Assembly (NCBI GenBank): GCA_963700285.1
Contig: CAVOXA010000005.1
Coordinates: forward strand, 1-64,000
Direction of reading: 5' to 3'
DNA: 64,000 bases
From: an uncultured Chloroflexia bacterium
GTDB taxonomy: Bacteria; Chloroflexota; Anaerolineae; JAAYZQ01
Shown here: positions 1,599 to 22,412 of the stretch, piece after piece
How the letters are laid out: each line of letters opens with the position of its first letter
How positions within the stretch are numbered: position 1 is the first letter of the stretch
Notes under the pieces: generated by a model
What the model was told of the DNA's origin: nothing
What the model saw: the letters and a program-made list of their open reading frames with translations, nothing else
The model's database searches: none
Position numbers and translations under genes: made by a program

Positions 1599-3089
1599 AT
1601 GAACATTCTACTGATCTATCCCGAGTTTCCAGACACTTTCTGGAGTTTCAAGCATGCGTTGAGGTTCGTGCGCAGGAATGCCTCCTCGCCGCCGCTGGGC
1701 CTGCTGACGGTGGCCGCCATGCTGCCGCCAAGCTGGTCAAAGCGCTTGGTCGATGCCAATGTGACCAAGCTGACCAGCGAAGACTTGGCGTGGGCTGATT
1801 TCGCGTTTGTCAGTGGCATGACTGTGCAAAGGGAATCGGCACATCAGATGATTGCTCGCTGCAAGGAGGCGGGCGTACAAGTTGTAGCTGGAGGACCACT
1901 CTTTACGGTCGAGCATGAGCAGTTTCATGAGGTCGATCATTTCGTGTTGCAGGAAGCCGAGCTAACCCTGCCAGCCTTTCTGGCAGATCTGCGCGAGGGC
2001 CGTGCCGAACGAATCTACACGACGACCGAATTTGCGGACCTGAGCGTGACGCCGGTTCCTCTCTGGGAGCTGGCCGATCTGGGACGCTACTTTTCGATGA
2101 GCATCCAGTTCTCCCGAGGCTGTCCGTACAACTGTGAGTTCTGCAATGTGACGGCGCTGCTCGGTCACCGGCCGCGCACCAAGACCGCCGAGCAGATCCT
2201 TGCCGAGCTGGACGATCTCTATGATCTCGGGTGGCGTGGGGGCATCTTTTTCGTGGATGACAACCTGATCGGGAACAAGAGATGTCTCGAAACGGAACTC
2301 CTGCCCGCCTTGGTCGAATGGAGGAAAGGAAAAAGGCTGGGACTGTTCAGCACGGAGGTCACCATCAACCTGGCTGATGACGAGCCATTGATGCACCTGA
2401 TGGTCCAGGCTGGCTTTGGCGCGGTCTTTGTCGGCATAGAGACGCCGGATGAGAGCGGCCTGGCCGAGTGCAGCAAGAAGCAGAACATGGGCCGTGACCT
2501 GGTCGAAAGCGTGAAACGTCTTCAGCGCGCTGGGTTGCAGGTGCAGGGAGGCTTTATCGTCGGCTTTGACAGTGATACTCCCTCCATTTTCCAGCGGCAG
2601 ATTGACTTTATTCAGGAAAGCGGGATTGTCACAGCCATGGTTGGCCTGCTTCAAGCTCCGCCTGGCACACGCCTGTACGAACGCCTGAAGCAGGCGGGAC
2701 GGTTGCTGGAACAGATGTCGGGCGACAATGTCGATGGCACAACCAATATCGTGCCCACGATGGACTTGGCTACACTGCGCGAGGGGTATAGGCGGATCCT
2801 ACAACACATCTACTCACCAACGCCCTACTACCAGCGCGTCAGGACCTTCTTGGGCGAGTACCGGCCACCCAAGCTGGCGGTCCCACGGGATCTTGCCTTT
2901 GTCTGGGAGATGGGCCTGGCCTTCGTCCGTTCCATCTATCGCCTGGGCATCAGGGGCCAGGAGCGCGTGCACTACTGGAGGCTCCTATGGTGGACACTGT
3001 TCCGCCGTCCCAGGCTATTGCCGCTGGCGGTCACGCTGGCCATCTATGGCTATCATTTCCGCACGATCTCTGAGCAACACATCCTCTAG
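1599..3089 (+). CDS. B12-binding radical SAM protein (HpnP-like, DUF4070 C-terminus)
   Basis: PPLGLLTVAAMLP B12-binding start, SRGCPYNCEFC CX3CX2C motif, FFVDDN, GGFIVGFD; GGAG RBS. Confidence 0.9.
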   Translation: MNILLIYPEFPDTFWSFKHALRFVRRNASSPPLGLLTVAAMLPPSWSKRLVDANVTKLTSEDLAWADFAFVSGMTVQRESAHQMIARCKEAGVQVVAGGPLFTVEHEQFHEVDHFVLQEAELTLPAFLADLREGRAERIYTTTEFADLSVTPVPLWELADLGRYFSMSIQFSRGCPYNCEFCNVTALLGHRPRTKTAEQILAELDDLYDLGWRGGIFFVDDNLIGNKRCLETELLPALVEWRKGKRLGLFSTEVTINLADDEPLMHLMVQAGFGAVFVGIETPDESGLAECSKKQNMGRDLVESVKRLQRAGLQVQGGFIVGFDSDTPSIFQRQIDFIQESGIVTAMVGLLQAPPGTRLYERLKQAGRLLEQMSGDNVDGTTNIVPTMDLATLREGYRRILQHIYSPTPYYQRVRTFLGEYRPPKLAVPRDLAFVWEMGLAFVRSIYRLGIRGQERVHYWRLLWWTLFRRPRLLPLAVTLAIYGYHFRTISEQHIL

Positions 3090-3098
3090 GACCACAGG

Positions 3099-4020
3099 TC
3101 ATGGCCCAGCGAAGAGATGACAGGCTGTGCGGTGGCCTTTGCCCACGGAGGGGAATTGCGGTTCCTGCTCCTCGCAGATCGCGCCGATCTTGGCAAAGCT
3201 TCGGGTGTGAAAGCGGCAGCCGCTGGGCGGATCGATGGGACTGGGTACGTTCCCCTCCAAGATGATCCGCTCCCGGCGGGCGGCCTTGTCCACGGTGGGC
3301 ACTGCCGCTACCAGTGCCTGCGTGTAGGGATGCGCGGGACTGGCGAAGAACTCGTCCGTCGGCCCTTCTTCGACGATCTTGCCCAAGTACATGATCGCCA
3401 CCCGGTCGCTGACGTAATGGACGACACTCAGGTCGTGGGCGATAAAGAGGTAGGTCAGGTCGAATTCCTCCTGGAGTTCGTCCAGTAGGTTGATGACCTG
3501 GGCCTGGATGGAGACGTCCAGGGCGGATACCGGCTCGTCACAGACGATGAACTGGGGGCGCATGGCCAGGGCGCGGGCGATGCCGATGCGCTGGCGCTGG
3601 CCACCGCTGAATTGGTGGGGATAGGTGTCCATGCGGCTTTCGGGGATACCTACGCGTTGCAGCAGGTAGGCGACCTCGTCCTCCAACTCGTGAAAGTCCT
3701 TGATGCCGCGGTTTCTCAGGGGCACGGTGACGATCTGGCGCACAGTCTTTCGTGGATTCAGGAAAGAATAGGGGTTCTGAAAGATCATCTGAATGTAGCG
3801 ATAGAAGCCCAGGCGGGTGCCATCCGGCGGTGCGCCTTCCTTCCCGGCTGACGCGGTCGGTACCGGCGTCGCTTCGGGAGCACGTTTTTGGGCGTGGACG
3901 TCCCACCCCCGAAATAGAACCTGACCCTCGGTAGGCTCGTACAGTCGGGTCAGTACCCGGCCAAAAGTCGTCTTGCCGCAGCCTGACTCCCCCACGAGGC
4001 CGACCGTCTCCCCCGGCCCG
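3099..4020 (-). pseudogene. oligopeptide/dipeptide ABC ATP-binding subunit (OppF/DppF-like), N-terminus deleted
   Basis: [17 protein letters not shown] Walker A, FSGGQRQR, CDEP, PPSGCRFH; no start region, abuts the truncated permease. Confidence 0.8.
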
Positions 4021-4738
4021 AGCTAGTGTGACATAGTCCTGCCGCAGCGTCTCCACCATGCTCGAGCGCAGCACCCTGGCCACGATAGCGGCCACCGAGG
4101 CCCCCAGGACGATCGAGGGCAAGACCAGGTGTCTCAGGCTGCTGACCAGCGCTTCCCAATTCCTGGTGAGGATGCTATCCGGCACGTACATGCCGGTTAT
4201 TTCCTGTAATGGTATGCCGAAATCAATGCGGCCCTGCACGGGTAGCCATCGGAGGCGGACAGAAAAGAGAAGGATCAAGACGATGCCCAACCAGAAGGCG
4301 GGCATTGAAACACCTAGAAAGGCACCGGCCATGCCGAGCCGGTCCACCAGCGAGTACTGCCGCACGGCAGAAATGATGCCGATGGGTATGGCAACGAGCA
4401 GAGCGAAAAAGAGAGCACCCAGGGCGAGTTCGATGGTCGCTGGCAGCCGCTCGGCAATGAGATCGGTCACCGGTTGCCTTTGGACATAGGAGTACCCGAG
4501 ATTGCCACGGATCGCACCCTTCAGGAACAGCCACAGTTGCACGGGGAGAGGTTCGTCGAGGTGAAACTCGTGGCGCAGCTGTTCCTGTTCACCGGCGCCC
4601 ACGGCTCCATCCTGCCCCAGCATGATGTCTACCGGGTCGCCAGGGGGTCAGGCGCATGAAGAAAAAGACCACAATGGCCACGCCAAACATGATGGGGATG
4701 ACCATGAGGATACGTTCCACAACTTTGAGTGTGCGCAT
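4015..4738 (-). pseudogene. peptide ABC permease (OppB/DppB-like), frameshifted and C-terminally truncated
   Basis: MRTLKVVERILMVIP start, frameshift in a C run before GDPVDIMLG, RLPATIELA, breaks off at [11 protein letters not shown] (EAA loop). Confidence 0.8.
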
Positions 4739-4859: not shown

Positions 4860-6243
4860 CTAGGGCGTGATGCACACGTCGTGCATGTTGATGCGGCTGT
4901 CGGAGGCCGGTTCCCAGTTCGTTATGTCTGCGCGGGCTGCTTCAGCTTCCTCAGGCAGGACCAGAAAGATGGCTGGCGCTTCCTCATAGACGATCTCCTG
5001 GGCCTCGTCGTACAGCTTTTGCCGCTCGGCGGTATCGGGAGTGGTCTCGGCAGCTTTGATCAGCTCGTCAACCCGCTTCAGTCAACATGGCCACAGCCTT
5101 GTCCGGATCGTATGGGTATGGCTCCAGACTCTTGTTCACAAAGTTGTTGTAGGGTGAGAGGGGACCGGGCAGGGCCACCGCGCGCCCGCCATAGATGGTT
5201 TCGATGATCAGCTCCTTGTCTACGGCATAGTTCAGCGCCTGGCGGACCAGTGGGTCATCGAAGGGCGGCTAGGTGACGTTCATCTCCATCCACGTCGGCC
5301 GGGTGCTGGGGGCAGTCAAGAGTTGAATGCCCTTGGTTTGGTCCAGGGTATCGACCAATTCCGCAGGTACAGCCTGGATGATATCCACCTCGCCAGCCAG
5401 TAGGGCTGCTACGAATGTCGATGCTTCGGGGATCACGCGAATGACGACTTGTCGCGCGCAGGCTGGGCCGACCGGTTCCAGGCTGGGAGCCCCACCCCAG
5501 TAGTCATCGAATCGTTCCAAGACGATCTCATCCAATCCCTTGGCCGAAACGAACTTGAAGGGGCCGGTGCCAATGGGGTGCTGGACAAAGCCCTCGGTAC
5601 CCACTTCCTCCAGGTAGTGCTTGGGCACGATCTGCTGATGAACGAGCATCTGCTCTGCAACCGGCCAGGGTCCGCTGAAGCGCATGATGACCGTATAGTC
5701 ATCCACCTTCTCGACCGACTCTAGTGGTGCGATGAGCCCCCCGCGTGGCGAGCTATGGGGCTCGGGATATTCGATCATGTTCTCGCCGATGATGCGCTCG
5801 AAGGTAAAGACGACGTCATCAGCCGTCATTTCTACGCCGTCGTGGAACTTGACGCCCTGGCGAAGCTTCACCTCCAGGGTTTTTTCGTCTATCCACTCCA
5901 TTGCTTCGGCCAACTCGAGGTGTATGCCGCTGCGGGTGTCGCGGGTGACCAGGCCGTCAAACATGTTGCGGGCCACGTTCTCCGATTGCCGGCTGCGGTG
6001 GTCGGCCGGATCCAGAGTATCGGGCGCCTGGGCCATGGCTACAATGATCACGTCTCGCGCGGGAGGCGCCGTAGGCGTGACTACTTTCTCAACTTCGATC
6101 TGGACCGTCTCCTTGATCTCAACTACCTGGGTGACGATCTTTTCTACCTCCACGGGCTCCGGAGGGGCGCCGCAGGCGACCACGAGGGCCAATGGTATCA
6201 GAATCGAGACACAGATCAGCAGGGTTTTCCTTACAAGACTCAT
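4860..6243 (-). pseudogene. family 5 ABC substrate-binding lipoprotein with in-frame TAG and internal deletion
   Basis: lipobox LVVAC, TLDP, LRQGVKFHDG, PIGTGPF; NVT*PPFDDPLVRQALNYAVDK continues past TAG at 5269-5271; AMLTEAG jumps to RVDELIKAA near 5070. Confidence 0.8.
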
Positions 6244-6770
6244 CCTTTCTCTCCTTTCGATTTCTAGGGCGATCAGCGGCTTTGCCAGTGCAGATTGCTC
6301 CGTGCTCAGGTCCTTATGCGGTACCACCTCCTTTCCGTCCTCAACCGCCCTCCACGAGCCTGCCAGTGCGGTTGACGGACCTGTGTCAAGCAGAATCGCG
6401 ACATTGCGAACGTGATGCCTACTGCCCTGGTGTGGACTCGCTGGAGAGAAAGGGCCAATACCCATGCCCAGTAAGCCTGCGGGCTCCGGGCGATCGCAGA
6501 TGCCTGGATCGCTTGCCTTGACTGGGCCTGCGTGCGAAGACCGTGCGCGCGGAACATGTCACAGCTCGAGGAGCCTTTTCTTAGCCAAGGGGGCGCTGTC
6601 GCGATGCTGCTCAACGCATCGTTCCTTCGCACAGCGAAAATGGATCGATCCCTGGCCGACTCATCCATGGTATTCTGTGTCCGTATGTCAAGGAGTTGCA
6701 CAGTATATACTTCTGATGTGCAAGTCTGAAGCCGGTTCGGTAAAAATTTTCATTCTTGGCGGATTCCAGG

Positions 6771-6799
6771 TTGACAGCGGAAATAATTTCTGCTATACT
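6771..6799 (+). promoter_or_regulatory. sigma70 promoter with a palindromic operator in the spacer
   Basis: TTGACA-17bp-TATACT; AGCGGAAAT-A-ATTTCTGCT dyad (6776-6794). Confidence 0.75.
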
Positions 6800-6807
6800 G
6801 CGCCCGA

Positions 6808-7686
6808 ATGGAACCTGCTATGGACGACAAAGGCATCCTGCTCCAGATCCAGAAATCCTTGCTCTCGCTGCCCGATCAGGAGCGCAGAGTTGGGGAGTAT
6901 ATCCTGAGACACCGCCACGACGTCGTGGACTATTCGATTACCCGGCTGGCGGAGGCGTCTGGTACAAGTATGACGACTATTTCGCGGTTCTGCCAGCGGA
7001 TGGGTATTGGAGGATACGGACAACTCAAGATCGCCCTGGCCAAGGAGTGGGGTTCAGCCCAGAACCTGGTCTACGTGGAGATCGAAGCGGGAGACACGTT
7101 GGCCAGTGTGGCCCAAAAGACCTTGGGATCCAATATACAGGCATTGTACGACCTGCAGAAGGCGCTGGACCTGGAGGGTCTCCAACAGGTTGCGGATGCG
7201 CTGTGGCTGGCCGGGCGCGTGGACATCTATGCAACCGGTGGCGCAGGGATTGCCGCCCGCGAACTGCACTTCAAATGCATGCAGTTGGGCCTCAACGCCA
7301 ACGCATTTCTGGATTCGCAGATGCAGGTTATGTCAGCTTCGGCCCTGACCCCTGGTGACGTCGGAATCGCCATTTCCCATAGCGGCAGGCAAGGCCACGT
7401 GGCCGAGGCGCTGAGGCTTGCTTCCTCGGGAGGGGCCAAAACGATTGCCCTCACCAGCTATCCCGATACGCCTGTGGCAAAAGCGGCCGAGATTGTGCTC
7501 TATACGACGTCGCTGGCTGGAATCATGACCTACGATTCACCCCGTGTGCGTACTACCCAGTTGGCGGTGGTGGACGTTGTCTATGATGTCATGCTCATGC
7601 AGGGCAATCCCCCGGTCCGAGACAACATGGCTCGCGTGGCCAGAGCCATGTCCAAATATACGGCGGGACTGGACCCCAGTGCCTGA
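6808..7686 (+). CDS. MurR/RpiR family transcriptional regulator (HTH + SIS)
   Basis: SITRLAEASGTSMTTISRFCQRMG HTH, GDVGIAISHSG SIS motif. Confidence 0.92.
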   Translation: MEPAMDDKGILLQIQKSLLSLPDQERRVGEYILRHRHDVVDYSITRLAEASGTSMTTISRFCQRMGIGGYGQLKIALAKEWGSAQNLVYVEIEAGDTLASVAQKTLGSNIQALYDLQKALDLEGLQQVADALWLAGRVDIYATGGAGIAARELHFKCMQLGLNANAFLDSQMQVMSASALTPGDVGIAISHSGRQGHVAEALRLASSGGAKTIALTSYPDTPVAKAAEIVLYTTSLAGIMTYDSPRVRTTQLAVVDVVYDVMLMQGNPPVRDNMARVARAMSKYTAGLDPSA

Positions 7687-7701
7687 GCCTTGAGGAAAAC
7701 T

Positions 7702-8895
7702 ATGGGCTATCTTACGCTCGCGCTGCAGGGTGATCACTATGCCATGGGACGCCAACACGGTCACCAGGTCCAGAATCTGCGGCCGCAGATCGCCAAGGCC
7801 ATCGAGATCCGGTTCGCGCAGATCGAACGAGACGGCGCTGATGCTCGCTTTGAGCGGCTGGTGCAAGAGACCCACGGCTTGCTCCAGGAGATCGACGCAC
7901 CTTTGGTGGATCTGGTCCGCGGCCAGGCTGAAGCCCTCGAGTTCGAGTTCGACTCGCTGTTTCGCTATGGCTTGGTCACCTATCTACGCGATGACTTGGC
8001 GATCCGCAAGCTCCAGAGCGCCCCAGCACCTCGGTCTCACGTTCCAGGGGACGTGTTGCGCGTAGGGGCGGAACATGGGAGTGAGGGCTGTACCACATGG
8101 GCCGCGTGCGGAGCGGCCACCGCCCAGAATGGGTCCGCCCATCAGAATGGGTCCGCCCATCAGAATGGGTCCGCCCACGGGCAGCCTATCCTGGCCAAGA
8201 ACCGTGATCAGGCTCCAGAATATCTTGCCTCGCAGACTGTGGCCCAGGTGACCCCGCAGTCCGGCTATCGCTATGTGTGTAGCGGCAGCGCCGGCTGCCC
8301 AGGGGTATTCTGTGCCGGGATCAATGAAGTGGGCCTGGCCGTCGGAGACAGCCACGTCTCGTCTACTGACCTGGGGCCCGGGCTGCCCGATTACTCGCTC
8401 ATGATGCATCTCCTGGAGGAGCATGCCGACGTTTCCTCAGCCCTCGACTATTTGCGCTCGGTACCTCGCATGGGGCGCAACAACCTCATTCTGGCCGATG
8501 CGCTGGGCCATATAGCCGTTTTTGAGATCGGCCACGACGGCTACGGCCAGTCCGAGACTTGCGACGGTGTGCTGGTCAGTACCAATCATTTTGTCACACC
8601 CTCGATGCGAGATCACTATGTAGACACGCAGGAGCCTCACCTGAGAGGCAACTCTTTCGCCCGCTACCAGACGGTAGCGCGGGCGCTGGAAGGGGCGATG
8701 GGGCGCGTTGATGTACCCTTTGCCCAACAGTTGATGGCGACCCACGCCGGGCCCCTGGCCTCCCTGTGCCGGCATCCAGCAGAGGATCTTGGGTCGATCA
8801 CGATTTCGGCCAGCATCTTTCTGCCCGCTCGGCGGGCCATGCTCTTTTGTCAAGGGCTGCCCTGCGAGGGCCAATATGATGAGTTTGTGCTGTGA
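7702..8895 (+). CDS. C45 family autoproteolytic Ntn acyltransferase/amidohydrolase
   Basis: GDHYAMGRQHG, EG/CTTW autocleavage site, LAKNRD, GINEVGL, TNHF. Confidence 0.85.
   Translation: MGYLTLALQGDHYAMGRQHGHQVQNLRPQIAKAIEIRFAQIERDGADARFERLVQETHGLLQEIDAPLVDLVRGQAEALEFEFDSLFRYGLVTYLRDDLAIRKLQSAPAPRSHVPGDVLRVGAEHGSEGCTTWAACGAATAQNGSAHQNGSAHQNGSAHGQPILAKNRDQAPEYLASQTVAQVTPQSGYRYVCSGSAGCPGVFCAGINEVGLAVGDSHVSSTDLGPGLPDYSLMMHLLEEHADVSSALDYLRSVPRMGRNNLILADALGHIAVFEIGHDGYGQSETCDGVLVSTNHFVTPSMRDHYVDTQEPHLRGNSFARYQTVARALEGAMGRVDVPFAQQLMATHAGPLASLCRHPAEDLGSITISASIFLPARRAMLFCQGLPCEGQYDEFVL
8120..8177 (+). repeat. 18-bp tandem repeat x3 (QNGSAH) inside the C45 gene
   Basis: CAGAATGGGTCCGCCCAT at 8125 and 8143, third copy at 8161 (17/18). 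Confidence 0.9.
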
Positions 8896-8939
8896 TAGGC
8901 CTGGGCTCCCATCTTGATCTGGAAGAGGTAGGGCCAAGC

Positions 8940-10403
8940 ATGTCAGGAATTGGTCGAGAGGGTCTAAGGGCAGGCTTTTTGTCCTTTCTCACAGAGGGTG
9001 ACATTGCGCGGATCCACGAGGGTGCGCTCCGGATCCTGACGCAGACGGGCATTGTTGTCCATGACGGAACCGCCCTGTCCCTCCTGAGAACAGGCGGGCT
9101 GCAGGGTTTTGCGCCAGGACCGCCGCGTTTACATGCCGGCGCCAGTGGTAGAACAGGCCGTGGCCCAGGCCCCGCAAGAGGTCTGCCTTTACTCCCGCGA
9201 GGGAGAACAGACGATGTCTCTGGGGCCTGGCCGGCTTCACGCGCGTACCTCTAGTGGAGCGACCGGCTTTGTCGATCTGTATAGTGGTCAGTTGCGCGCG
9301 CCTACCAGTCGGGATGCCGCTGCTGCTGCCCGGCTGGCCGATGCCCTGCCTCACGTCCATGGCGTCAGCACGATGGCGGCGCAGCCGGCCGACGTGCCCG
9401 TCACGTCTGTGGACGTGCACACCTTGCGGATCGCGTTAGCCAATACCACAAAGCCCCTGGGCTATGTCTGCCTCAACGAGTCGCTCATCGAACCTGTGCT
9501 GGACATGCTGGCCGTGGCGGTAGGGGGAGAGCAGGCTCTGCGGGAAAAGCCCATCATCACCGCCCTGGCCGAATCCACCTCGCCTTTACGGTTGGTGTCC
9601 AGCCAGTTGTCTGTACTCCAGGCCTTTGCCAGGCGTGGTTTGCCGCTCACACTCCATGCGCATCCGATGGCCGGGTTCACCGCACCGGTGACGCTGAGCG
9701 GCGAGCTGGTGATTACCCACGCCGAGGTTCTGGCCCTGGTGACTATCGCCCAGTTGATCCGGCCGGGCACACCTGTGGTCTATGGTATGTCTTCGTCGGT
9801 GCCGGACATGCGAGGCGGAACCAACCTTTCCGGGGCCGTCGAGATTGGCCTGTTGGGCGCTGCCGTGGCCAGATTGGCCAGACACTGTGGTTTGCCCTGC
9901 GTCATGAGCAGCAGGAACCGACGCCCATGCGCCGGGCGCCCAGTCGGTGATGGAACGGTTGATGACCCTATTGGTCCCGGCACTGGCGGGTATCGACCTG
10001 GTAAACCTGACCACCCTGGACACCAAGATGTCCTTCAGCCTGGAGCAGTTGGTGGTGGACGAGACGCTGCTCAGTGTGGTCGAACGATGCCTGCAGGGGA
10101 TTGCGGTGGACGATAGTACTCTTGCCCTGGATCTGATCCATGACGTCGGGCCGGGTGGCGCGTTCATCACCACCGATCATACCCTGGGACACTTTCGCGA
10201 CGAGTTGCTGGTCCCGGATCTGGTCGACCGCCAGAATAGAGAGTCGTGGCAGGCGGCTGGGGCGCCTGATATGCGTACACTCGCTCGGGAAAAGGCGCTG
10301 TGCATCCTGGCAGAGCATCAGCCTGTACCGCTGGCCGGACGATGTCGTCGTACAACTGGATGAGATCGTTGAGGAAGCAGAGTCTCGAGGGTTGAGCCAT
10401 TGA
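8940..10403 (+). CDS. trimethylamine methyltransferase (MttB/COG5598) family protein, non-pyrrolysine; about 3 frameshifts
   Basis: LSFLTEGDIARIHEGALRIL, PMAGFTAPVTLSG, QLIRPGTPVVYG, DMRGG..GAVEIG, LALDLIHDVGPGGAF, LAEHQP. Confidence 0.85.
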
Positions 10404-10422
10404 TTCGCCGAGAAGGGATGGG

Positions 10423-11747
10423 ATGGAAGCGATGAAGGTCGACAAGATCACCGTCTGTGGAGGAGGAAACGGCGCCCAGACTCTGGCTCCCATCGCCGCC
10501 TGCAATCTGGGCTGCGCCGTGGACCTGTATGCCCCCTTTGGCGACGAAGCCGAGCGACTGCGCACTGGCATCGCCGCCCACGGTGGCCTGGAGGCCACAT
10601 CTCACCAGAGTGGGTTCGCAGTTCAGGCCAAGGCCCGGCCACGCCGGGTCAGCGCCGACCCGGCCGAGGTGATCCCCGGCTCGGGCGTGGTGGTGCTGGT
10701 GCTGCCCGCATTTGCCCACGAGGGCACGCTGCGCCAGATCGTGCCCTTCCTGGACGAGGGAGCCTGGGTCGGGGCTATGCCCGCCCGCGGAGGCTTTGAC
10801 TATTGTGCCGTGCAGGTGTTGAAGGAGCAGGGCCGAGAGGATGTCCGGCTCTTTGGCCTGCAGACGCTGCCCTGGGCCTGTCGCATCGAGGACTATGGCC
10901 AGATCGTCCACGTTCTGGGAGTCAAAAAGATGGTGGACGCGGCCAGCCGGCCGGCCGCACAGATCGGGGAGATAGCGCCGCTGCTGGCGCGGATGCTGGG
11001 CCTGCCCATCGGCCGGACGTCGAACCTGCTGGCTCTGACGTTGGCCAACACCGGGCAGCTCATTCACCCGGGCATCATGTACGGCCTCTTTGCCACGTTT
11101 GGGATAGCGCCTTTTGGGGTCGAGGATGCTCCCCTGTTCTATCAGGGCTTGAGCCAGGAGGGGGCCAGGACTCTGGCCGAACTGAGCGACGACGTGCAGG
11201 CCATCCGGACCCGGCTGGCAGCCTGCGCTGGACCTTTCGGCGGTGCGCCCGCTGTTTGACTGGTTGCTCCAGTCCTACGGCGACGCCATCGCCGATCCGT
11301 CCACCCTGCACAGCGCCTTTGTCACCAACCGGGCCTACGCCGGCCTCAAGGCGCCGGTCGAGATGCGCGAACCTGACCGGACCCACAGCTCGGGTCAGCT
11401 TGTCCCCGACTTCGAGGGCGCGGTACCTGGCCGAGGACGTGCCCTTTGGCTTGGCCGTCAGCCGGGCCATCGCCAAGCTGGCTGATGTGCAGACGCCCAC
11501 GATGGACAGAGTGATCGCCTGGGCCGGCGCCCGGCTGGGCAAGGACTATCTGGGCCGCGATGCAGGCCAGGCCCGCATCCCACAAGCATATGGGCTGGAC
11601 AATCTGGACCAATTGCTTTCTTTCGCTGCCGAAACCGAAAGCCGACTGGCGCGCCGCGTGAGCGCGGGGCCCAGGCATCACAAGAGGATGAGGGACAACA
11701 CAGGAGGAGAAGAATCATGGGGACTGAAGCTGAAACGTACCACATAA
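10423..11747 (+). CDS. NAD(P)-dependent opine (octopine/nopaline) dehydrogenase family protein; frameshifted, 3' end uncertain
   Basis: VCGGGNGA Rossmann, LPAFAHE, QTLPWACRI, IHPGIMY, PLFYQG, RYLAEDVPFGL. Confidence 0.88.
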
Positions 11748-13740
11748 AGCGGCGCGTGCTGGCCGGATCCATCGGCGATTGCGTCCACTCGCTGGGCGTC
11801 GAGACCTTTGCCGAGTGGATGGAAGACCGGGGCGAGGGCTTCATGGCGGTCAAGCTGGGGCCGGCCGTGCCGATCGACGACGTGGTCAACAAGATCCGCG
11901 AATCGCGACCCGAGGTGGTTGCCATCTCGATGCGCCTGGGCGACCTGCACGTGGACAAGCTCATCGCCGAATTCATCGAAAAGGCGGCCCGGTACCGCCT
12001 GCTGCCCCGCGAGAGCGGCATCCGCTACGCCTTTGGCGGGCTGCGCCCGGCGGCCAACCTGGTGCGGGCCATGACCGGCCTGCCGGTGCAGGAGGACAAG
12101 TTCTCGCCGCCGGAGGACCGGCACTTTGACCTGGACGAGATCGCCGAGAACTATGGCGACATCGACGCCTTCCAGGGCTTTTTTGCCCTGGTCGTCGACG
12201 ACTTTATCACCATGGAGGAGCTGGAGGCCTTTGCCCAGGACGCAGCGGTCGCGGCGAAAGAGCAGGAGATCGCAGTGGGCCGACTCGCTGCTGGAGCGCA
12301 TCCGGCAGGTGCGCGAGCTGGAGAACCGGCCCATCATCCGCGCGCACATCGGCATCGCCGCCGACAGCATCGAGCCCACGGTCGAGGGCGTCCGAAATGC
12401 TGGCCGACGCCCAATGCCTGGAGATTGTCTCGCTGGCGCCCGACCAGCCGGCCCAGGAGTACCTGGCCAAGTTCGTGCGCGGCGAAGAGGACCCCGAAAA
12501 GTACCTCAAGGGCCAGGGCGGCGTGCCCATCCGCAGCACCGAGGATCTGCAACGGCTGAAGGCAGGCCACGCTGCGGGGCAACTATCCCATGACCCGCAT
12601 CTATTCCGGCACCGACGAGTTGGTCGAGCTGGCCAAGCTGTACGAGAGTTCCTTCCGCATGCCCTTCCCGGCCGTGCCGATCTTTTTCTACAACGAGCTG
12701 GACGGCCGCGGCCCGATCTCGATCCGCGACGGCTTCGACGAGCACTTTGAGGTCATGCGCTGGTGGGCGTCCATCGACAAACCGGTCGAGATCAATGACC
12801 CCCACCAGTGGCAACTGCGCAACAGCACCGACGACCTGCTGGTGACCGACCACGTCATCGCCGGCGTCGTGGCCCTCAAGATGGGCATCCGGCAGTACGT
12901 GATGCAGATGATGTACGACCTGCCACCCGGCACCTCCGGGCTTGAACGACCTGGCCAAGTTCCAGGCGGCCTACGAGCTGATCGAACCGCTGACCCGCCA
13001 TTTCGACTTTCATATCATCAAGGAGACGCGCGGCGGCCTGTCCGACTTTCCGCCCAACCTGGACAAGGCCAAGGGCCACCTGGCGGTGTCCACCTACTGG
13101 CAGATGTACATGGAGCCCGACATCGTCCACGTGGTCAGCTTTTCCGAAGCCCATCACGAGGCCAAGGCCGAGGATGTGATCGAAAGCTGCGACATTGTCA
13201 AGCAGGTGTTCGAGGATTTCTACCGGCGACGACAAGCCCGACATCTGGCACGATCCGCGCCTGATCGGCCGCAAACGCCAGCTCAAGCTGGGGGCCATGT
13301 ACAACCTGCTGCACCTGGCGCTTCTGGGCGGCTACGAGGGGCCGGTCAACCTGGACAACTTTTTCCAGTGGGCCGTGTCGCCGGAGGAGGCGCCGCCAGC
13401 GCGATCATCCCCGCGAGTGGGAGCGCAACTATGAAACGATGCTGCTCAGCCTCATCGACGAGGCGAACTATCCCACCGGACAGTGCGGCATGGTCAGCGC
13501 CGACACACTGGACCTGGCCTTGCAGGTTGGCCTGTTCCAGGCGCCGCAGATCACCGTTCTGGACAAGCGCTACGAGATGGTGGGCAAGTGCCGGACCAAG
13601 ATCGTGGATGGCGGCTGTGTCATCGACGAGTTCGACGGCGTCAAGGTAGCCGACGAGATCGAGCGGGTGGACCTGGTTCCGCGAGCGGAGCCCCTGGTTC
13701 TTTGACAAGACGCATCAGCCAGGCCGACGAGGATCTGTAC
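11717..13740 (+). CDS. uncharacterised cobalamin-binding enzyme (B12 domain + large catalytic domain); frameshifted, probably continuous with the GlmL domain
   Basis: GSIGDCVHSLG DxHxxG-like motif, then IRAHIG, SLAPDQ, GGVPIRS, RIYSGT, YNELDGRGP, VEINDPHQW, ETRGGL, PDIVHVV, EDVIESC; GGAGG RBS. Confidence 0.75.
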
Positions 13741-15479
13741 ATCACCGAGACGGCCGAGGCGATGGACGAGGACGTCGTGGCCGGTGCGCGACGGCAGGTG
13801 GGTATCCACAACGCATCCGAGCTGGAGAACAAGCGGGTGCTGGTGGTGGACTTTGGCAGCACCTTTTCCAAGATCGGCACCTTTGACACGGCGACGGAGG
13901 AATTCAGCCTGCGCTACGTGCCGACCATCGTCGAAGACCTGCGCGTCTCGCTGGCCGATGGCCTGGGTGTGCAAGGAAGAGTGCCAGCAGCGCGGCGACT
14001 GGGAGCCCCTGGCCAGAGCCATGGCCGAGTTCGACATCAAGCTGCCCTGCTCCAGCGCCAAGGGCGGCCTCAAGATGGTCACCGTCTCGATGGTCAAGGA
14101 GGAGAGCGGTTTTGCCGCCGACCTGGCGGCCCTGACCGCCGGCGCCAAGCTGATCAACAGCTACGAAGGGGTGCTCACCGAGGACGCAGGCGCATGGCCA
14201 TCTACGAGCAGGACCAGCCGGAGATCATCCTCCAGGCCGGCGGCGTGGATTTCGGCGGCGATACCGAGACCCAGTTGCACAACGCCCGCCTGCTGGCCAG
14301 GTACTCCAAGGCGGCCACCTATGCCCGCTATGGCGTGCCGGTGATCTATGCCGGCAACCAGGATATGCCAGCCGACGAGAGTGCGAGATAGCGCATCTAC
14401 AAGGCCGAAGGGGTGGACATCCGCATCACGCCCAACGTCATGCCCGAGATCAACACTTTCCGCATCGAGGTGGTCAACGAGGCCATCCGCGAGCTGTTCC
14501 AGACGATCATCATCCGTGGCAAGGGGTTCGACGTGGTCGAAGAGTACATGAGCGCCCCCTTTATCCCGACGCCACGGGCCGCCTTCCGCGGGATCAACCT
14601 GCTGGCCAAGGGCTACGGCGATGAGCCGGGCCTGGGCAACATCATGGCCCTGGACATCGGCGGGGCGACGACCGACTTTTACTCCAACGTCGGCGACAAC
14701 CCGCTCTACGATTACCAGGGCGACGATCCGCTGCGCAAGGTCAAGCGCACCATCCTCAAGACGCCCAACACGCCGCTGGCCTACCGCCGCGTTGAGGGCA
14801 AGTACGGCCTGGCCTACGATGCCGAGAACATCAAGGAGCTGCAGCGATTCCAGAGCGGCCGCATGCAGCGCGACCTGGAAGCGTTCTTGCTGGACGAGTA
14901 TCCCCGACTTCCATCCGGGGGATGACGCACTTCGGCGCGTTTGTGCAGCGCCTCGACGGCCGGCTGGACCTTGATCTGGATCGCTACCTGAGTTGGCTGA
15001 CGGCCAACCCCCACGCGCTGCCCACCAGCGACGAGGAGAATGCCGTTCGCTCCTTCCTGGCCAGGGAGATCATGGCCGCTACGACCGGACGCAACCTGGG
15101 CTATGTCAAGGAAACCGACACCTATTTTTTGCAGTATGGCGTCAATTTCCTCAACCAGCCCTGCACAACCCTGCTCATCGGCGGCACCATCTATCACAAG
15201 TGCAAGGACGGCGTGGCGTTGCACAGCGATGCCCAGGCAGGTGGGCGCCCGTCTCCTGGCGTCGAAAGGCTGCAACCGCGGAACGACTCTGAGCGCGACC
15301 TGTGGCTCATCGCGGCAGGCACCCAGTACAACGAGGAGGAAAGCTGGATCCTGCGGCCCAGGGGCCCGATCCTTCTGGATGCAGCCTACATGGTCTCGAT
15401 CGTCGGCGGGCTCTACGGTTACATCGATCCGGAGCGGGCGCTGCGGATGCTCAAGCGCCACCTGTTGCCGCTGGAGTAG
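13741..15479 (+). CDS. glutamate mutase L (GlmL/MutL/OraF-type) ASKHA reactivase domain; frameshifted
   Basis: LVVDFGSTFSK, CSSAKGGLKM, PEIILQAGGVDFG, PVIYAGN, NVMPEI, IPTP, LDIGGATTDFYS, RRVEGKYG. Confidence 0.82.
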
Positions 15480-16065: not shown

Positions 16066-16413
16066 ATGATCATTAGGCACGATGCAGTAGACCCGCTTGA
16101 ATTCGACAACTTGAAGATTCTTGACTACACGGCAGGGCAAGATAGTAGTTCCTCTTTCGCCGAGATTACCGTTCCCGTCGGTGTCAGTCACAGGCTTTCC
16201 TGGTCGAATCGGTCAGACAAGTACTATTACATAGCCCGGGGAGATGTGCATTTTAGGGTCAACAAAGAGTCCCACAATCTCTGCGCCGGTGATTTTTGCA
16301 TGGTTCCCAAAGGTGAACGCTTTCGCTACACGAACATCGGTTCAAGAGACGCTGTGTTGATCTTGGTGCATACTCCAAGTTTCAGGCTAGAATGCGAAGA
16401 ATTCGAGGACTGA
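16066..16413 (+). CDS. cupin domain protein
   Basis: YYYIARGDVHF..LCAGDFCMVPKGERFRYTN cupin pattern; metal His residues not conserved. Confidence 0.75.
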   Translation: MIIRHDAVDPLEFDNLKILDYTAGQDSSSSFAEITVPVGVSHRLSWSNRSDKYYYIARGDVHFRVNKESHNLCAGDFCMVPKGERFRYTNIGSRDAVLILVHTPSFRLECEEFED

Positions 16414-16575: not shown

Positions 16576-19023
16576 TTGAGTGGTAGAGACAACAAGATCG
16601 TGCGCACTACGACCTGGTCCGCCGGACCGGGCTGCCATGGCGGCTGTGGCGTGCTGGCCCACATCGAGAGTGGCAAACTGGTCAAGATCGAGGGCGACCC
16701 GGAGCACCCCTGGAACCAGGGCCGGCTCTGCGCCCGCTGCCTGGCGATGACCCAGTACACCTATCACCCCGACCGGCTGACCAGCCCGCTCAAAAGGGTC
16801 GGAGAGCGGGGCGAAGACAAATGGCAGGAGATCTCCTGGGACGAGGCCTTTGACCTCGTCGAGGAGAAACTGGGCAAGATCCGGGAGGAATACGGCCCCG
16901 AGAGCATCATCTTTTCCATGGGCACCGGCCGGGATATCGGCGCCTGGATCTGCATGTTGGCCTACGCTTACGGCAGCCCCAACGTCATGTTTTCCCTCAG
17001 TGGTGTGGCCTGCTACAGCCCCCGCATCTCGGCTGTGGAGACGGTCCAGGGCGACTATTGCATCCTGGATGCGGCACAATGGTTCCCCGATCGCTATGAC
17101 GATGTCCGGTACGAGGTTCCAGAGTGCATCGTCATCTGGGGCTACAACATCCCGGCCACCTGCCCGGACAATGTCTTTGGGCACTGGATCATCGACCTGA
17201 TGAAAAAAGGCACTGAGATCATCTGTATCGATCCGCGGCTAACCTGGTTCGCCTCACGCTCGAAGAAGTGGCTGCCCATCCGGCCCGGGACCGATGGGGC
17301 GCTGGCCCTGGGCTTTCTGAACGTTATCCTCAACGAAGGCCTGTACGATCAGGAGTTTGTTGAGCAATGGACCAACGGCCGCTTCCTGGTCCGGCGCGAT
17401 GGCGGCAAGCTGCTGCGCGCCAGCGACCTGGTCGAGGGCGGGTCCTCGGACGACTTTGTGATCTGGGACAATTCCAGGGCACAGACTGTGATCTGGAATT
17501 CTGGCAGGGCCGAGTTCGCAAGGCAGGACGTAGAACCAGCGCTTCAGGGTGACTTTCATGTCAGTCTCCTAGATGGTCAGCAAGTTTCTTGCAAGACCGT
17601 TTGGGACGCCTTCCGCGAGCGGGTGAATGAGTATCCGGTGGAGCGGGTGGCCGAGATCACCTGGGTCCCTGAGAAGGATATCGCCGAGGCGGCGCGGATG
17701 TACGCCAAGGCCAAGCCCGCGGCCATCCATTGGGGCGTCCCCATTGACATGACCCCCGCCATCACACCCACCACCCAGGCCATCACCGCCCTGTGGTGTC
17801 TGACCGGCAACCTGGACGTGCCCGGCGGGAATGTGATCTCCCGCTATGCCTTTGATGCTGTGGCCTATGCCCTGCCGGGCGCCGAGGGCATCATCAAGCT
17901 AAAGTCTGCGGAAGCTGATGAAAAACGGATCGGGCGCGATCAGTATGGACCGCTGAGGCAGTTCATCTGGCGGGCCCACACCGACCTGGTACTGGACCAG
18001 ATCTTTAGCGAGGACCCTTATCCCATCAAGGGCATGTGGATCCAGACCTGCAACCCCTTGGCCGGCATCGGCCTTGACCCACAGCGATGGCGCGAGGCCC
18101 TGAAAAAGCTGGATTTTGTGGCCGTCGTCGATCTGTTCATGACGCCCACGGCCCAGTACGCGGACGTCGTCTTGCCGGCAGCCACCTTTCTCGAAAAAGA
18201 GAGCGTCAGGAGCTGGTGGGTGCCGCTGCAGACCATCAACAAGGCCATCGAGGTGGAGGGGTGCAAGCCCGACATCGAGATCAACTTTGAGCTGGCGAAA
18301 AGGTTCGACCCGGATTTTCGCTGGGACACCATCCACGAACTGTTTGACGAGATTGTCCAGCCATCGGGCATGACCTTCGAGCAGTTGCAGGAGAAGGGCT
18401 GGGCCTTTCCGCCAGAGGGGCATCCCAGCGCCCCCTATCACAGGTACCAGAAGGGACTGCTGCGCAAGGATGGCAAGCCCGGCTTCCAGACGCCCTCGGG
18501 CAAGGTGGAGTTGTACTCCACCCTGCGTGAGGATTGGGAGCTGGAACCGGTGGCTGACTACGAGGAGCCGCCCTTCACGCCTGTCAGCCAGCCTGAACTG
18601 CTGAAGGAGTATCCGTTGATCCTGTCCACCGGCAGGCGCTCGGCGGTCTATTTCCACGCGGAACACCGCAACATCCCCTGGCTGCGGGAGCTTGATCCCG
18701 ATCCTATCGTCGAGATCCACCCCGATACGGCCAAGTCCCTGGATATCGGCGCCGGGGAGTGGGTTTGGATCGAGAACTGGCTGGGTCGATGCAAGTTCCG
18801 GGCCAAGGTCACGCTGGAGGTCCCACCCTGGATGGTGATGGCGGCCCACGGCTGGTGGTTCCCTGAAGAACCAGCGGAAGAGCCATCCCTCTTTGGCGTC
18901 TGGAAGTCCAACATCAACCTGCTGTTTCCCATGGGCTCCCAGGGCAAAGACGGTCTGGGCGCACCCATCAAGCACATGCTCTGCAAAGTCTACAAAGTGG
19001 GTGGAGGGGGTGAGGCCCAATGA
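16576..19023 (+). CDS. cytoplasmic molybdopterin (bis-PGD) oxidoreductase catalytic subunit, acetylene hydratase/catechol dehydroxylase-like clade
   Basis: WSAGPGCHGGCG..LCARC, HPDRL, GVACYSPR (candidate Cys ligand), RPGTDGALA, DLFMTPTAQYADVVLPAA, GFQTPSGKVE, FHAEHR; no Tat RRxFLK. Confidence 0.9.
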   Translation: MSGRDNKIVRTTTWSAGPGCHGGCGVLAHIESGKLVKIEGDPEHPWNQGRLCARCLAMTQYTYHPDRLTSPLKRVGERGEDKWQEISWDEAFDLVEEKLGKIREEYGPESIIFSMGTGRDIGAWICMLAYAYGSPNVMFSLSGVACYSPRISAVETVQGDYCILDAAQWFPDRYDDVRYEVPECIVIWGYNIPATCPDNVFGHWIIDLMKKGTEIICIDPRLTWFASRSKKWLPIRPGTDGALALGFLNVILNEGLYDQEFVEQWTNGRFLVRRDGGKLLRASDLVEGGSSDDFVIWDNSRAQTVIWNSGRAEFARQDVEPALQGDFHVSLLDGQQVSCKTVWDAFRERVNEYPVERVAEITWVPEKDIAEAARMYAKAKPAAIHWGVPIDMTPAITPTTQAITALWCLTGNLDVPGGNVISRYAFDAVAYALPGAEGIIKLKSAEADEKRIGRDQYGPLRQFIWRAHTDLVLDQIFSEDPYPIKGMWIQTCNPLAGIGLDPQRWREALKKLDFVAVVDLFMTPTAQYADVVLPAATFLEKESVRSWWVPLQTINKAIEVEGCKPDIEINFELAKRFDPDFRWDTIHELFDEIVQPSGMTFEQLQEKGWAFPPEGHPSAPYHRYQKGLLRKDGKPGFQTPSGKVELYSTLREDWELEPVADYEEPPFTPVSQPELLKEYPLILSTGRRSAVYFHAEHRNIPWLRELDPDPIVEIHPDTAKSLDIGAGEWVWIENWLGRCKFRAKVTLEVPPWMVMAAHGWWFPEEPAEEPSLFGVWKSNINLLFPMGSQGKDGLGAPIKHMLCKVYKVGGGGEAQ

Positions 19024-20256: not shown

Positions 20257-20635
20257 TCTGTCGATATTCCATCCCCCTGGGCCGATCAGAGTTGTGTAGG
20301 TTTTTCGATCAAAGGGCCACGAACCCGATATGGGCTACTTTCCGCGGATCAAGCTCAAGCAGGCGAGGCTGTGATTGCCGTTGAGCAAAGTTCCAAGACC
20401 TCCAACTTCTGGTACCAGGCTCGCGTACAGTATAGGGCAGAACCTCCGGAGGGTCAAGCTGGCAATACGCAGCCAGGCTCGGCCAGCGAGGGGATCAGCT
20501 GGTCGCCCAGCAGCGAGCGCAGCCATCAGTCTATGTCCTGGAGGTCGCTGGCAGACCGTCCGAGTGACAGCCGTAGGCAAAGACCTTCTCAGATCTGGTC
20601 CTGACAGCCAGAGAGGGACTACGGTCCAAGGCTGG

Positions 20636-22133
20636 CTATCTGGCAACGGCGTCGAAAGTCGGGCTCAGGGCCGGGTACAGGTCGCGGTAGAGCGGGTATA
20701 GATCCTGGTACGCCGTCCTTGCCAGACCAGGTTCAATACTGCCGGTGGTCTCGATGACGGCTGTGCAGGCAGAGGGTACGTCCGGATAGATGCCAACGCC
20801 AGTGGCCGCCAGCAGCGCCGCGCCATAGGCCGCGCCCTCGGTGGTGTTGACCGTCACCAGCTCGGCGTCCAGCACGTCGGCCAGGATCTGCCGCCACAGC
20901 GGGCTCCTGGCCCCGCCGCCGGAGACGCGCACCTGGCGGATCTCGGCCAGCCCGGCTGCCTTCATCAGCTCAAAGCTGTCGCGCAGGCCAAAGGCCACGC
21001 CCTCCAGCACGGCGCGGGTCATGTGGGCCTGGCGTGTGGCGCACCGTCAGGCCGACGAAGGCACCGCGCGCCAGCGGATCGGGGTGCGGGCGTGCGCTCG
21101 CCGGTCAGGTAGGGCAGGAAGAGCAGTCCCTCGCTGCCGGGCGGCGACCTCGGCCGCCGGCGCCAGCAGCGCGTCGAAGTCCGGTGCCGGGGGCCAGGGT
21201 GTCGCGGTACCAGCGCAGGCTGCCCGCCGCCGAGAGCATGACGCCCATCAGGTGCCACTTGCCGGGCACGGCGTGGCAGAAGGCGTGCAGCCGGCCCTCC
21301 GGCTCGACGATGGGCCGGTCGGTGGCGGCAAAGACCACGCCCGAGGTGCCCAGGCTGAGGGAGACCACGCCCTCGACGACCGCGCCGATGCCCACGGCCC
21401 CGGCAGCCTGGTCGCCGCCGCCGCCCACGACCGGCGTACCCGCCTTCAGGCCGGTCGCCTCGGCCGCCTGCGGCGCTGATCTGGCCGGTCACGGCCGGTC
21501 CCCTCAAAGGTCGGGGGCAGCCAGGCGGGATCGATGCCCAGCGCCTCCACCACCTCGGGCGACCAGTCGCGCTGGCGCAGGTCAAAGAGCACCGTGCCCG
21601 CGCCGCCGGCCTTGTCGGTGGCATAACTCGCCGGTCAGCCTGAAGCGCACGTAATCCTTGGGCAGCAGGATCTGCCGGACCCGGGCGAAGACCTCCGGCT
21701 CATGGTTCTTGACCCACAGGATCTTGGGCGCGGTGAAGCCGGTCAGCGCGTCGTTGCCGGTGATCTGGATGAATCGCTCCTTGCCCAGCCGCGCGCGGAT
21801 CTCGTCGCACTCCGCCCCGGTGCGCTGGTCGTTCCACAGGATGGCCGGGCGCAGCACCTCGCCCGCCGCGTCCAGCAGCACCAGGCCGTGCATCTGGCCG
21901 GTCAGGCCCACGCCCTTGACCTCGGCTGGATCGACGCCGGATTGGGCCAGCACCTGGCGGATGCTGGCGACGGTCGCCTGCCACCACAGGTCGGGGTGCT
22001 GCTCGGTCCACAGGGGCCGCGGCGTGTCGTAGTCGTACTCTGACGAGGCGACGGCCACCACCTGGCCGTCGGCGCGCATCAGCAGCGCCTTGGTGGCGGT
22101 GGTTGAACTGTCGATCCCCAACACGTAGGTCAT
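20636..22133 (-). CDS. xylB: xylulokinase (FGGY family); several frameshifts
   Basis: [55 protein letters not shown]. Confidence 0.88.
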
Positions 22134-22412
22134 GAGACGATTCCTCCGGGTAGAACTTGGCAGTTCTGCGAGGTGGGCTTTCTCCGCACAGTATAGCTCC
22201 AATATATCCCTGGCGTCAAGCTGGTCAGGGTTTTTGACGCCAAGTGAGGTGGCCGGCAAGCTGGCTAGCCATGGTTGCCGGAGCGAGCTTGCTCTGCCCA
22301 TGTTGTTGAGCAAAGCTGCAGGACGTGGTACAATAGGCAGGCCACAGGCAGACTGGTATAGACCAGGGTCCACGGCGGTCCTGGTTCGTTGTTGCACAGC
22401 AGGTTGAATGCC

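Follow-up and report, generated by a model that had tools for sequence, protein, structure and literature searches.

A predicted cobalamin-dependent mutase fused to GlmL and paired with an opine dehydrogenase in Anaerolineae, with opines of acidic amino acids as probable substrates

In 2009, a passage in Zhang et al. predicted a B12-dependent protein family with an N-terminal B12 domain, always encoded next to an octopine/nopaline dehydrogenase and found in Firmicutes and Chloroflexi (PMC2667541). Other closely comparable enzymes are glutamate mutase GlmS/GlmE with its partner GlmL from Clostridium cochlearium (1cb7, 6h9e) and lysine 5,6-/D-ornithine 4,5-aminomutase with OraF (1xrs, 8t0v, 3kow). 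Here, we analyze 64,000 nucleotides (the window) of contig C5 (CAVOXA010000005.1) in the 7.05-Mb assembly of an uncultured Chloroflexia bacterium (GCA_963700285.1). Genes for an RpiR-family regulator, a C45 amide hydrolase, an MttB-family protein, an opine dehydrogenase (ODH), and a B12-binding protein with a GlmL domain are co-oriented on its plus strand at 6808-15479, with a divergent family-5 ABC importer. Close homologs come mostly from Anaerolineae. The locus resembles the 2009 family, as matched by description and not by alignment, in its N-terminal B12 domain and adjacent ODH, whereas the D-Ala:D-Ala ligase and asparagine synthase neighbors named in that passage correspond to an unfused type treated below, and the passage is silent on the GlmL fusion, importer, hydrolases, and MttB (PMC2667541). 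The first-pass annotation of this DNA, made by a model from its letters, had put the operon forward as a candidate undescribed system. With the pair of B12 protein and ODH already a predicted family, the system is uncharacterized but not undescribed. The open full-text literature, which leaves most subscription papers outside its scope, yielded no characterization of the mutase, and only PMC2667541 describes the pair in the text available there.

The pieces between 11717 and 15479 correspond in intact relatives to one gene of ~1,223 amino acids (aa) encoding a B12 domain, a mutase barrel, and GlmL. Most of the best 120 homologs listed are single proteins of ~1,220 aa matching PF02310 and PF13941, so the read-through from B12 protein into a GlmL/MutL domain, already noticed in the first-pass annotation, is a true fusion. 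The top 78 homologs listed share 79-92% identity with the first 185 aa of the window's gene. In the tree, the fused proteins group together with a support of 1.0, adjacent to unfused proteins of ~545 aa. The GlmL domain matched PF13941; that of P0001 reached an E-value of 1e-75 against NF040745 (GlmL of methylaspartate mutase), yet only 255 of 475 bits, and 165 of 600 bits against NF040744 (ornithine Or-4), both below the equivalog cut-off. The B12 domain matched PF02310 at an E-value of 2e-7, below the curated cut-off. In an alignment of 94 rows, the lower-ligand His is present in 90, as part of a CxHxxG motif in 73 and with a DxHxxG-type Asp in 17; the window has Cys-x-His-x-x-Gly, with the His codon at 11786-11788. 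Searches of the PDB by sequence returned matches to the B12 domain alone, and NCBIfam has no model for the barrel.

To place the barrel, we relied on a structural model of the first 655 residues of the ortholog L011, built from the 94-row alignment with a mean predicted local distance difference test (pLDDT) of 94; residue numbers below follow this model. It consists of a Rossmann domain and a TIM barrel. The best match of the barrel was glutamate mutase epsilon (1cb7_B; Foldseek E-value 2e-14, Z 27.2, root-mean-square deviation 3.1-3.4 over ~380 residues), followed by lysine 5,6-aminomutase (8t0v_A; Z 26.2, a tie), ornithine aminomutase (24.3), and acyl-CoA mutases (~19). Atlas features also pointed to PF06368 clusters (0.93). 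TIGR01503 and PF06368 matched nothing in the window's genome (G000) or P0001, and only the distant P0130 scored 27.5 against 26.6. The corrinoid protein is thus predicted to have the fold of an adenosylcobalamin (AdoCbl) mutase without being an ortholog of a characterized one, in agreement with the new corrinoid enzyme of the first-pass annotation. It is predicted to work like a class I mutase by a radical 1,2-shift, and to be neither glutamate mutase nor a standard aminomutase dependent on pyridoxal phosphate (PLP).

Comparison with GlmE revealed both shared and altered positions. A profile alignment (probability 97.8, 12% identity) placed Arg66, Arg100, Arg149, and Glu171 of GlmE on His200, Gln236, Tyr285, and Pro307, so the substrate clamp of glutamate mutase is not retained; we take the three arginines to bind the substrate carboxylates and Glu171 to bind the free alpha-amine. 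A change from Glu171 to Pro is what would be expected if the substrate nitrogen were substituted. Five barrel arginines (R198, R283, R320, R357, and R427) are at least 90% conserved among the 94 sequences, which would fit a polycarboxylate substrate; on strands 1 and 3, Arg198 and Arg283 precede His200 and Tyr285 by two positions, and Glu347 and His460 are also conserved. GlmE Gly68 and Asp96 are retained in the profile alignment. Glu466, at least 90% conserved and present in the window, aligns with GlmE Glu330, which contacts the adenosyl group according to passages in PMC4413051 and PMC3958899. Overall, the protein is like glutamate mutase in its His-on B12 Rossmann domain, TIM barrel, Glu330 equivalent, and GlmL partner. 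It differs in being one chain with fused GlmL, in having CxHxxG instead of DxHxxG, in its 12-15% identity, in altered positions for Arg66, Arg100, Arg149, Glu171, and Lys326, and in being partnered with an ODH where glutamate mutase has methylaspartate lyase.

The lysine and ornithine aminomutases are alike in barrel fold (Z 24-26), the GxGGxP motif, the conserved Glu, a GlmL-like helper, and an Orr-like racemase, the last being present in 6 of the 75 fused loci described below. Unlike in those enzymes, the B12 domain here is N-terminal and its His is followed by no conserved PLP lysine: Lys is absent 9-15 residues after it in 69 of the 90 His-bearing rows, and the sole near-invariant Lys (403) sits in a barrel helix. 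We therefore weighed a PLP-free aminomutase that would move nitrogen on a pyruvate imine or opine, with pyruvate as the electron sink in place of PLP and the ODH supplying or trapping the imine. The net reaction would convert glutamate to beta-glutamate, or an N-(1-carboxyethyl) to an N-(2-carboxyethyl) amino acid. The tied folds (Z 26.2 versus 27.2) and the missing lysine would suit such an enzyme, as would an hhalign alignment that puts Tyr285, Tyr314, Arg320, His352, and Glu466 on ornithine aminomutase Tyr160, Tyr187, Arg192, His225, and Glu338. Some PLP-contact positions are kept in this alignment and several others appear lost (Arg109, Ser114, Ser162), but its probability is 2% with two template sequences, making the residue mapping a lead only. 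Part of the ornithine aminomutase residue roles used here comes from passages in PMC3958899. Strict coupling to ODH, including the ODH fusion noted below, would suit an unstable imine, and an Asp opine could take a nitrogen shift on its alanine half. Against this, no ODH is known to release imines, and there is little precedent for the radical migration of nitrogen when the amine is secondary and reduced. We consider such an aminomutase, although the main rival, unlikely and favor a glutamate-mutase-type carbon shift, because an N-substituted glycyl radical would be well stabilized and Glu171 is gone.

We next considered what the partner ODH implies about the substrate. An intact ortholog of the window-type ODH is closest to scallop (Pecten) octopine dehydrogenase 3c7a (E-value 1e-66), an ODH model has a pLDDT of 95, and the family hallmarks are present: PF02317, the GxGxxG/A nucleotide motif, catalytic His and Asp, and a conserved Arg, with the catalytic His in 52/52 rows of the same type. 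Relative to 3c7a, the invertebrate-type motifs are alike while scallop Glu142 and Gln118 are replaced by Gln and Arg. The Gln occurs in 50 of the 52 rows, window included, and a passage in PMC6033044 describes Glu142 as binding the arginine guanidinium, which disfavors octopine, one of the substrates put forward in the first-pass annotation. Passages in PMC10787698 report that hot-spring mODHs couple pyruvate to L-Asp, L-Glu, cysteate, and homocysteate, with a preference for the first two, and that Arg111 and Gly198 (ArODH numbering) make ODH prefer acidic amino acids, as shown by double mutation. This Arg/Gly pair is present in the window's ODH, in 52/52 same-type ODHs, and in 66/70 other-type ODHs of the fetched loci. 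This pair makes N-(1-carboxyethyl)-Asp or -Glu the likely opine, and such a tricarboxylate would suit the arginine-rich barrel. The same residues turn the prediction away from the strombine, alanopine, tauropine, and betaines also proposed for screening. As far as PMC10787698 describes them, mODH-45 to -582 are alike in the PF02317 fold, catalytic His/Asp, and Arg111/Gly198 pair, whereas the ODH in the window belongs to the invertebrate type; by eye, mODH-45 and mODH-47 closely resemble the partner ODHs of the unfused clade. The main text of that paper makes no mention of B12, a mutase, or an operon. In the loci L020, L021, and L030, an extra ODH of the CENDH type has Cys or Leu in place of the acidic-substrate Arg, and that of L030 is without the catalytic His; these second ODHs are possibly decaying or retuned.

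The gene neighborhood was compared across 75 loci around fused homologs from related genomes; because the loci differ in flank length and the genomes share ancestry, the counts here and for the unfused loci below serve as tallies and not as tests. ODH was present in 64, and the remaining 11 loci break off in the fused gene or no more than 1 kb 5' of it. It directly precedes the fused gene in L035, and P0091 encodes ODH, mutase, and GlmL as a single chain (a triple fusion). The CENDH type replaces the invertebrate type in ten fused loci and both types occur in five, suggesting that the ODH function and not one particular gene is required. The importer's binding protein was found in 56/75. An amide hydrolase was found in 50/75, or 29/35 of those with long flanks, and was of the C45 (37-38 loci), C26 gamma-glutamyl hydrolase (9), GGT (5), or D-aminoacylase-like amidohydrolase (3) type, with C45 and C26 never in the same locus. 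Binding-protein clades in a FastTree tree track hydrolase type, a match for which kinship alone may account. RpiR was present in 37/75 and GntR in others. The fixed core is therefore mutase and ODH, accompanied by an importer and an exchangeable amide hydrolase, with MttB as an accessory. This comparison, suggested in the first-pass annotation as a check, upheld a conserved neighborhood around its B12 protein. C45 held up as a part only in the sense of being one of four exchangeable hydrolases, and the deacylation of an imported compound that had been postulated fits the hydrolase slot.

Several details accompany these genes. The C45 protein retains the EGCTTW processing site, a motif also present in relatives. 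Just after the processing Cys lies a perfect 18-bp tandem repeat of 2.9 copies (8125-8177), encoding QNGSAH in frame, and part of this insertion is missing from a same-genus genome. DarA-like genes lie 3' of C45 in four fused loci (L043, L047, L052, and L068). In L035 (5701-13800), an unfused mutase gene sits directly 5' of RpiR, ODH, and the fused mutase gene, placing both clades side by side.

The first-pass annotation had counted MttB among the parts of the operon, but its presence in 12 and absence from 63 of the 75 loci make it an accessory. Nonetheless, it is tied to the locus type and is no chance neighbor: a close ortholog occurs in 10 of 301 genomes of the class, all ten of which have the mutase (background 118/301), and it lies within ~13 kb of the mutase in nine of them, once beside an unfused mutase. 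A Gly aligns with Pyl334 of 7xcl, and no stop occurs in the 9 orthologs whose site was shown; with no amber codon in intact orthologs, the earlier assignment as a non-pyrrolysine protein stood. MtgB glycine betaine methyltransferase (2qne, 9yce) is a full-length family match (E-value 7e-61) also without pyrrolysine, but the Arg of its GVPSR motif, which presumably binds the betaine carboxylate, is Val here and the small corrinoid partner is not among the conserved neighbors. At the level of loci, neither a cognate small corrinoid protein nor a second methyltransferase appeared among the conserved clusters of the 75. Separately, the window's genome gave 41 tblastn matches to the MttB family, fragments included, several in tandem on C1 and C5.

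The link between MttB and the mutase raises the question of whether the operon serves methyl transfer, with MttB demethylating an amine onto the B12 domain, the barrel passing the methyl group on, and GlmL acting as a reductive activator. The closest sequence matches of the B12 domain do include methyltransferase corrinoid proteins, and the MttB subfamily is bound to the mutase in its carrier genomes as described. However, the barrel models as a mutase with no methyltransferase barrel among its top fold matches, the adenosyl-binding Glu is retained, and most loci manage without MttB. We regard this explanation as very improbable.

A second line of evidence came from 58 unfused loci (38 Chloroflexota and 20 Bacillota), which encode ODH in 35/38 and 18/20 cases, respectively, but the importer's binding protein in only 1/58. 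Cyclic di-AMP (c-di-AMP) riboswitches control osmolyte and potassium genes, and one lies directly upstream in 12/20 of the Bacillota loci. The amide-forming AsnB was found in 7/58 and an ATP-grasp gene in 4/58 (one on the opposite strand), and in P0130 the mutase is fused to ATP-grasp. Among fused loci, AsnB, ATP-grasp, and the riboswitch were each found in 0/75, Rfam having been applied to 7 fused loci of Bacillota. That one clade has enzymes forming amides while the other has an importer and enzymes breaking them suggests synthesis versus breakdown of one class of compound, and related bacteria of the unfused clade likely make the compound under salt stress. A small unfused sub-clade has separately gained GlmL, together with an importer and C45, MttB, or hydantoinase/oxoprolinase. 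P-II-like or DarA-like small genes and Na/H exchangers lie near the unfused L092, L094, L095, L099, L131, and L141.

Considering these results together, we think it probable that the AdoCbl mutase acts on an opine of an acidic amino acid, and we lean toward a catabolic direction for the fused clade. Our tentative reading of the whole operon, for which we infer the substrate, is that the B12-GlmL protein, ODH, hydrolase, and importer take up and degrade an amide of N-(1-carboxyethyl)-glutamate or -aspartate in rearranged form, as the catabolic mirror of an osmolyte pathway. In such a pathway, the family-5 ABC system would import the conjugate and RpiR would induce the operon. C45, or elsewhere the C26, GGT, or D-aminoacylase-like enzyme, would open a side-chain amide or lactam. 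The mutase, as predicted from its fold and residues, would then perform a PLP-free 1,2-shift back to the plain opine, in its simplest form interconverting N-(1-carboxyethyl)-3-methylaspartate and N-(1-carboxyethyl)-glutamate via an N-substituted glycyl radical. It is doubtful that this exact carbon-skeleton reaction is the right one. The ODH, to judge from residues tested in its homologs, would split the opine by NAD+-linked oxidation, yielding NADH, pyruvate, and L-Glu (or L-Asp), and the fused GlmL, a likely repair ATPase, would, by analogy, reactivate the mutase. In the unfused sister clade, mutase and ODH would work in the forward direction, with the compound serving as an osmolyte or potassium counter-ion. 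In some Anaerolineae, MttB might remove an N-methyl group from a substrate variant, which is the weakest step.

Several observations weigh against this reading. The aminomutase fold is tied with that of glutamate mutase to within Z 1, and replacement of the carboxylate-binding Arg66, Arg100, and Arg149 means that the pocket differs from that of glutamate mutase, leaving the glutamate-type reaction as only the simplest guess. In PMC10787698, four of the six tested mODHs prefer Asp to Glu, and a carbon shift of the glutamate type is not open to an Asp opine. Those mODHs belong to the CENDH type and the ODH in the window to the invertebrate type (22-33% identity across types), so the residue rule is extrapolated. 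Neighborhood counts rest on kin genomes with unequal flanks, 6 of the 35 long-flanked fused loci have no hydrolase, and in Chloroflexota the majority of unfused loci consist of an operon of just two genes. Lastly, the importer is broken in the assembly, so this copy may be impaired.

Another role would be a new route for fermenting glutamate or another acidic amino acid, with imported gamma-glutamyl or N-acyl peptides yielding the free amino acid and no special osmolyte involved. The ODH would add pyruvate as a temporary handle, the mutase would rearrange the product, and the ODH would free 3-methylaspartate for methylaspartate ammonia-lyase. The C26, GGT, and aminoacylase-type hydrolases with the Orr-like racemase in the hydrolase slot would fit, as would the five fused loci with two ODH types. 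The window's genome has a gene of the methylaspartate-lyase family and no GlmE match; across the class, the lyase occurs in 25/301 genomes, 17 of those 25 with the mutase, and GlmE in 4/301. Yet the lyase is present in just 6 of 24 fused-type genomes, is not among the conserved neighbors of the 75 loci, and sits in other operons (histidine utilization, other MttB), and its enrichment is across kin. Fermentation would also leave the c-di-AMP control of the sister clade unexplained. We judge this scenario quite unlikely, and the lyase was set aside as the downstream enzyme, being weakly supported and unlinked to the locus. The copy in the window's genome (G000:C14:392968-394353, L177) lies among MttB, a 4Fe-4S protein, and a beta-keto acid cleavage enzyme, and in another genome a gene of this family accompanies histidine lyase and urocanase.

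We also considered the state of the window's own copy. Relative to the intact gene of L021, the large gene has 13 one-base insertions and is free of deletions that break the frame; its codon changes number 312 synonymous and 158 non-synonymous, and, across four references, it has 0-1 new stops. Contigs of relatives, which are other strains, are without the extra bases at 12392, 12938-42, 13392, 13679, 13713, and 14905. A search of sequencing runs listed none with more than 0.11 of the sequence words and no RNA run. The rpoC gene of the assembly is also split over frames, with rpoB intact. The frameshifts in the large gene look like assembly errors, as judged from assembled sequence. A sugar-kinase-like gene at ~20600-22600, its family assigned by eye, is frame-broken like the mutase gene.

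The importer is a different matter, since the divergent system of the first-pass annotation is present but made incomplete by two deletions. At the junction 4015/4016, ~2.5 kb is missing relative to a same-genus genome, covering the end of permease B, permease C, the first ATPase, and the start of the second ATPase, whose remnant corresponds to residues 75-373 of the ATPase in L031 (77%). In the binding-protein gene, ~350 bp is missing near 5077-5096 by the same comparison, and its pieces correspond to residues 2-385 and 493-562 of the protein in L031. Accordingly, the operon here might be a decaying pseudogene cluster and not an intact pathway hit by sequencing errors. One of the deletions has a short CCCC microhomology, the lost DNA is nowhere else in the assembly, and ~13 frameshifts fall in the large gene while the neighboring C45 and molybdoenzyme genes have none. 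On the other hand, all 13 breaks are one-base insertions with almost no new stops, synonymous changes exceed non-synonymous ones 2 to 1, the window's pieces retain 21/21 key family residues checked, and rpoC is split too. Decay is improbable, and would concern the window's copy alone, the system being intact in dozens of relatives.

All genes named in the first-pass annotation were recovered by domain matches at the place and on the strand it gave; their extents are listed in Table 1. The true stop of the ODH gene is uncertain, as homology runs out near 11630. For the strong sigma70-like promoter, two sites were found where 0.5 would be expected from shuffled sequence. A riboswitch scan of 1-22000 found none; a cspA thermoregulator-like leader at 61-417 reached 48.9 bits, below its gathering score of 78. 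An intact B12-binding radical SAM protein with DUF4070 (1599-3089) converges on the importer, and downstream lie a cupin (16066-16413) and a molybdopterin oxidoreductase (16576-19023) shared almost solely with the same-genus genome. We rejected the flanking radical SAM, CarD, cupin, and molybdoenzyme genes as parts of the system, as they are present in 0, 0, 1, and 2 of the 75 loci, respectively.

Table 1. Features of the operon and the divergent importer in the window.
Feature	Position	Strand	Evidence and remarks
Second ATPase of importer, C-terminal three quarters	3099..4016	-	PF00005, PF08352
ABC permease B, truncated near residue 243/336	4009..4738	-	PF00528, PF19300; tblastn with intact L013 permease
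Family-5 solute-binding protein, internal deletion	4866..6234	-	PF00496
Weak sigma70-like promoter towards importer	6702..6730	-	9/12 consensus bases; consensus match alone
Strong sigma70-like promoter directly 5' of rpiR	6771..6799	+	TTGACA-17-TATACT, extended -10; 11/12 consensus bases
RpiR-family regulator	6808..7686	+	PF01418 and PF01380
C45 Ntn amide hydrolase	7690..8895	+	PF03417; NF040521 163 bits versus cut-off 85
Non-pyrrolysine MttB-family protein	8940..10403	+	PF06253; three frame pieces, frameshifts near 9087, 9913, 10335
ODH, invertebrate octopine-dehydrogenase type	10423..11747	+	PF02317; three pieces, frameshifts near 11219, 11415
Fused gene, N-terminal part: cobalamin-binding Rossmann domain and glutamate-mutase-like TIM barrel	11717..13829	+	Several frame pieces
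Fused gene, C-terminal GlmL/MutL (ASKHA) domain	13830..15479	+	PF13941; several frame pieces

Few AdoCbl mutase reactions are known, and this mutase family, an orphan since 2009, is common: it occurs in 118/301 sampled genomes of the window's class and 83/401 of a Bacillota phylum, against 4/301 class genomes for true glutamate mutase. What is new is that its partner ODH is tied to enzymes for which synthesis of N-(1-carboxyethyl)-Asp and -Glu was demonstrated in 2024, providing named, makeable candidate substrates. As a variant within a known enzyme class, the system can now be tested directly at the bench. A bolder and rather unlikely version would have a widespread PLP-free class of B12 aminomutases in which pyruvate attached by ODH is a disposable electron sink for a radical nitrogen shift, with the c-di-AMP clade making a tricarboxylate osmolyte not discovered so far, which the GlmL-fused clade would import and ferment; if true, this would imply a hidden cycle of production and consumption in anoxic sediments and digesters. 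If the two-clade model of synthesis and breakdown is right, it leads toward an osmolyte that is new to science, together with the anaerobic sink of that compound.

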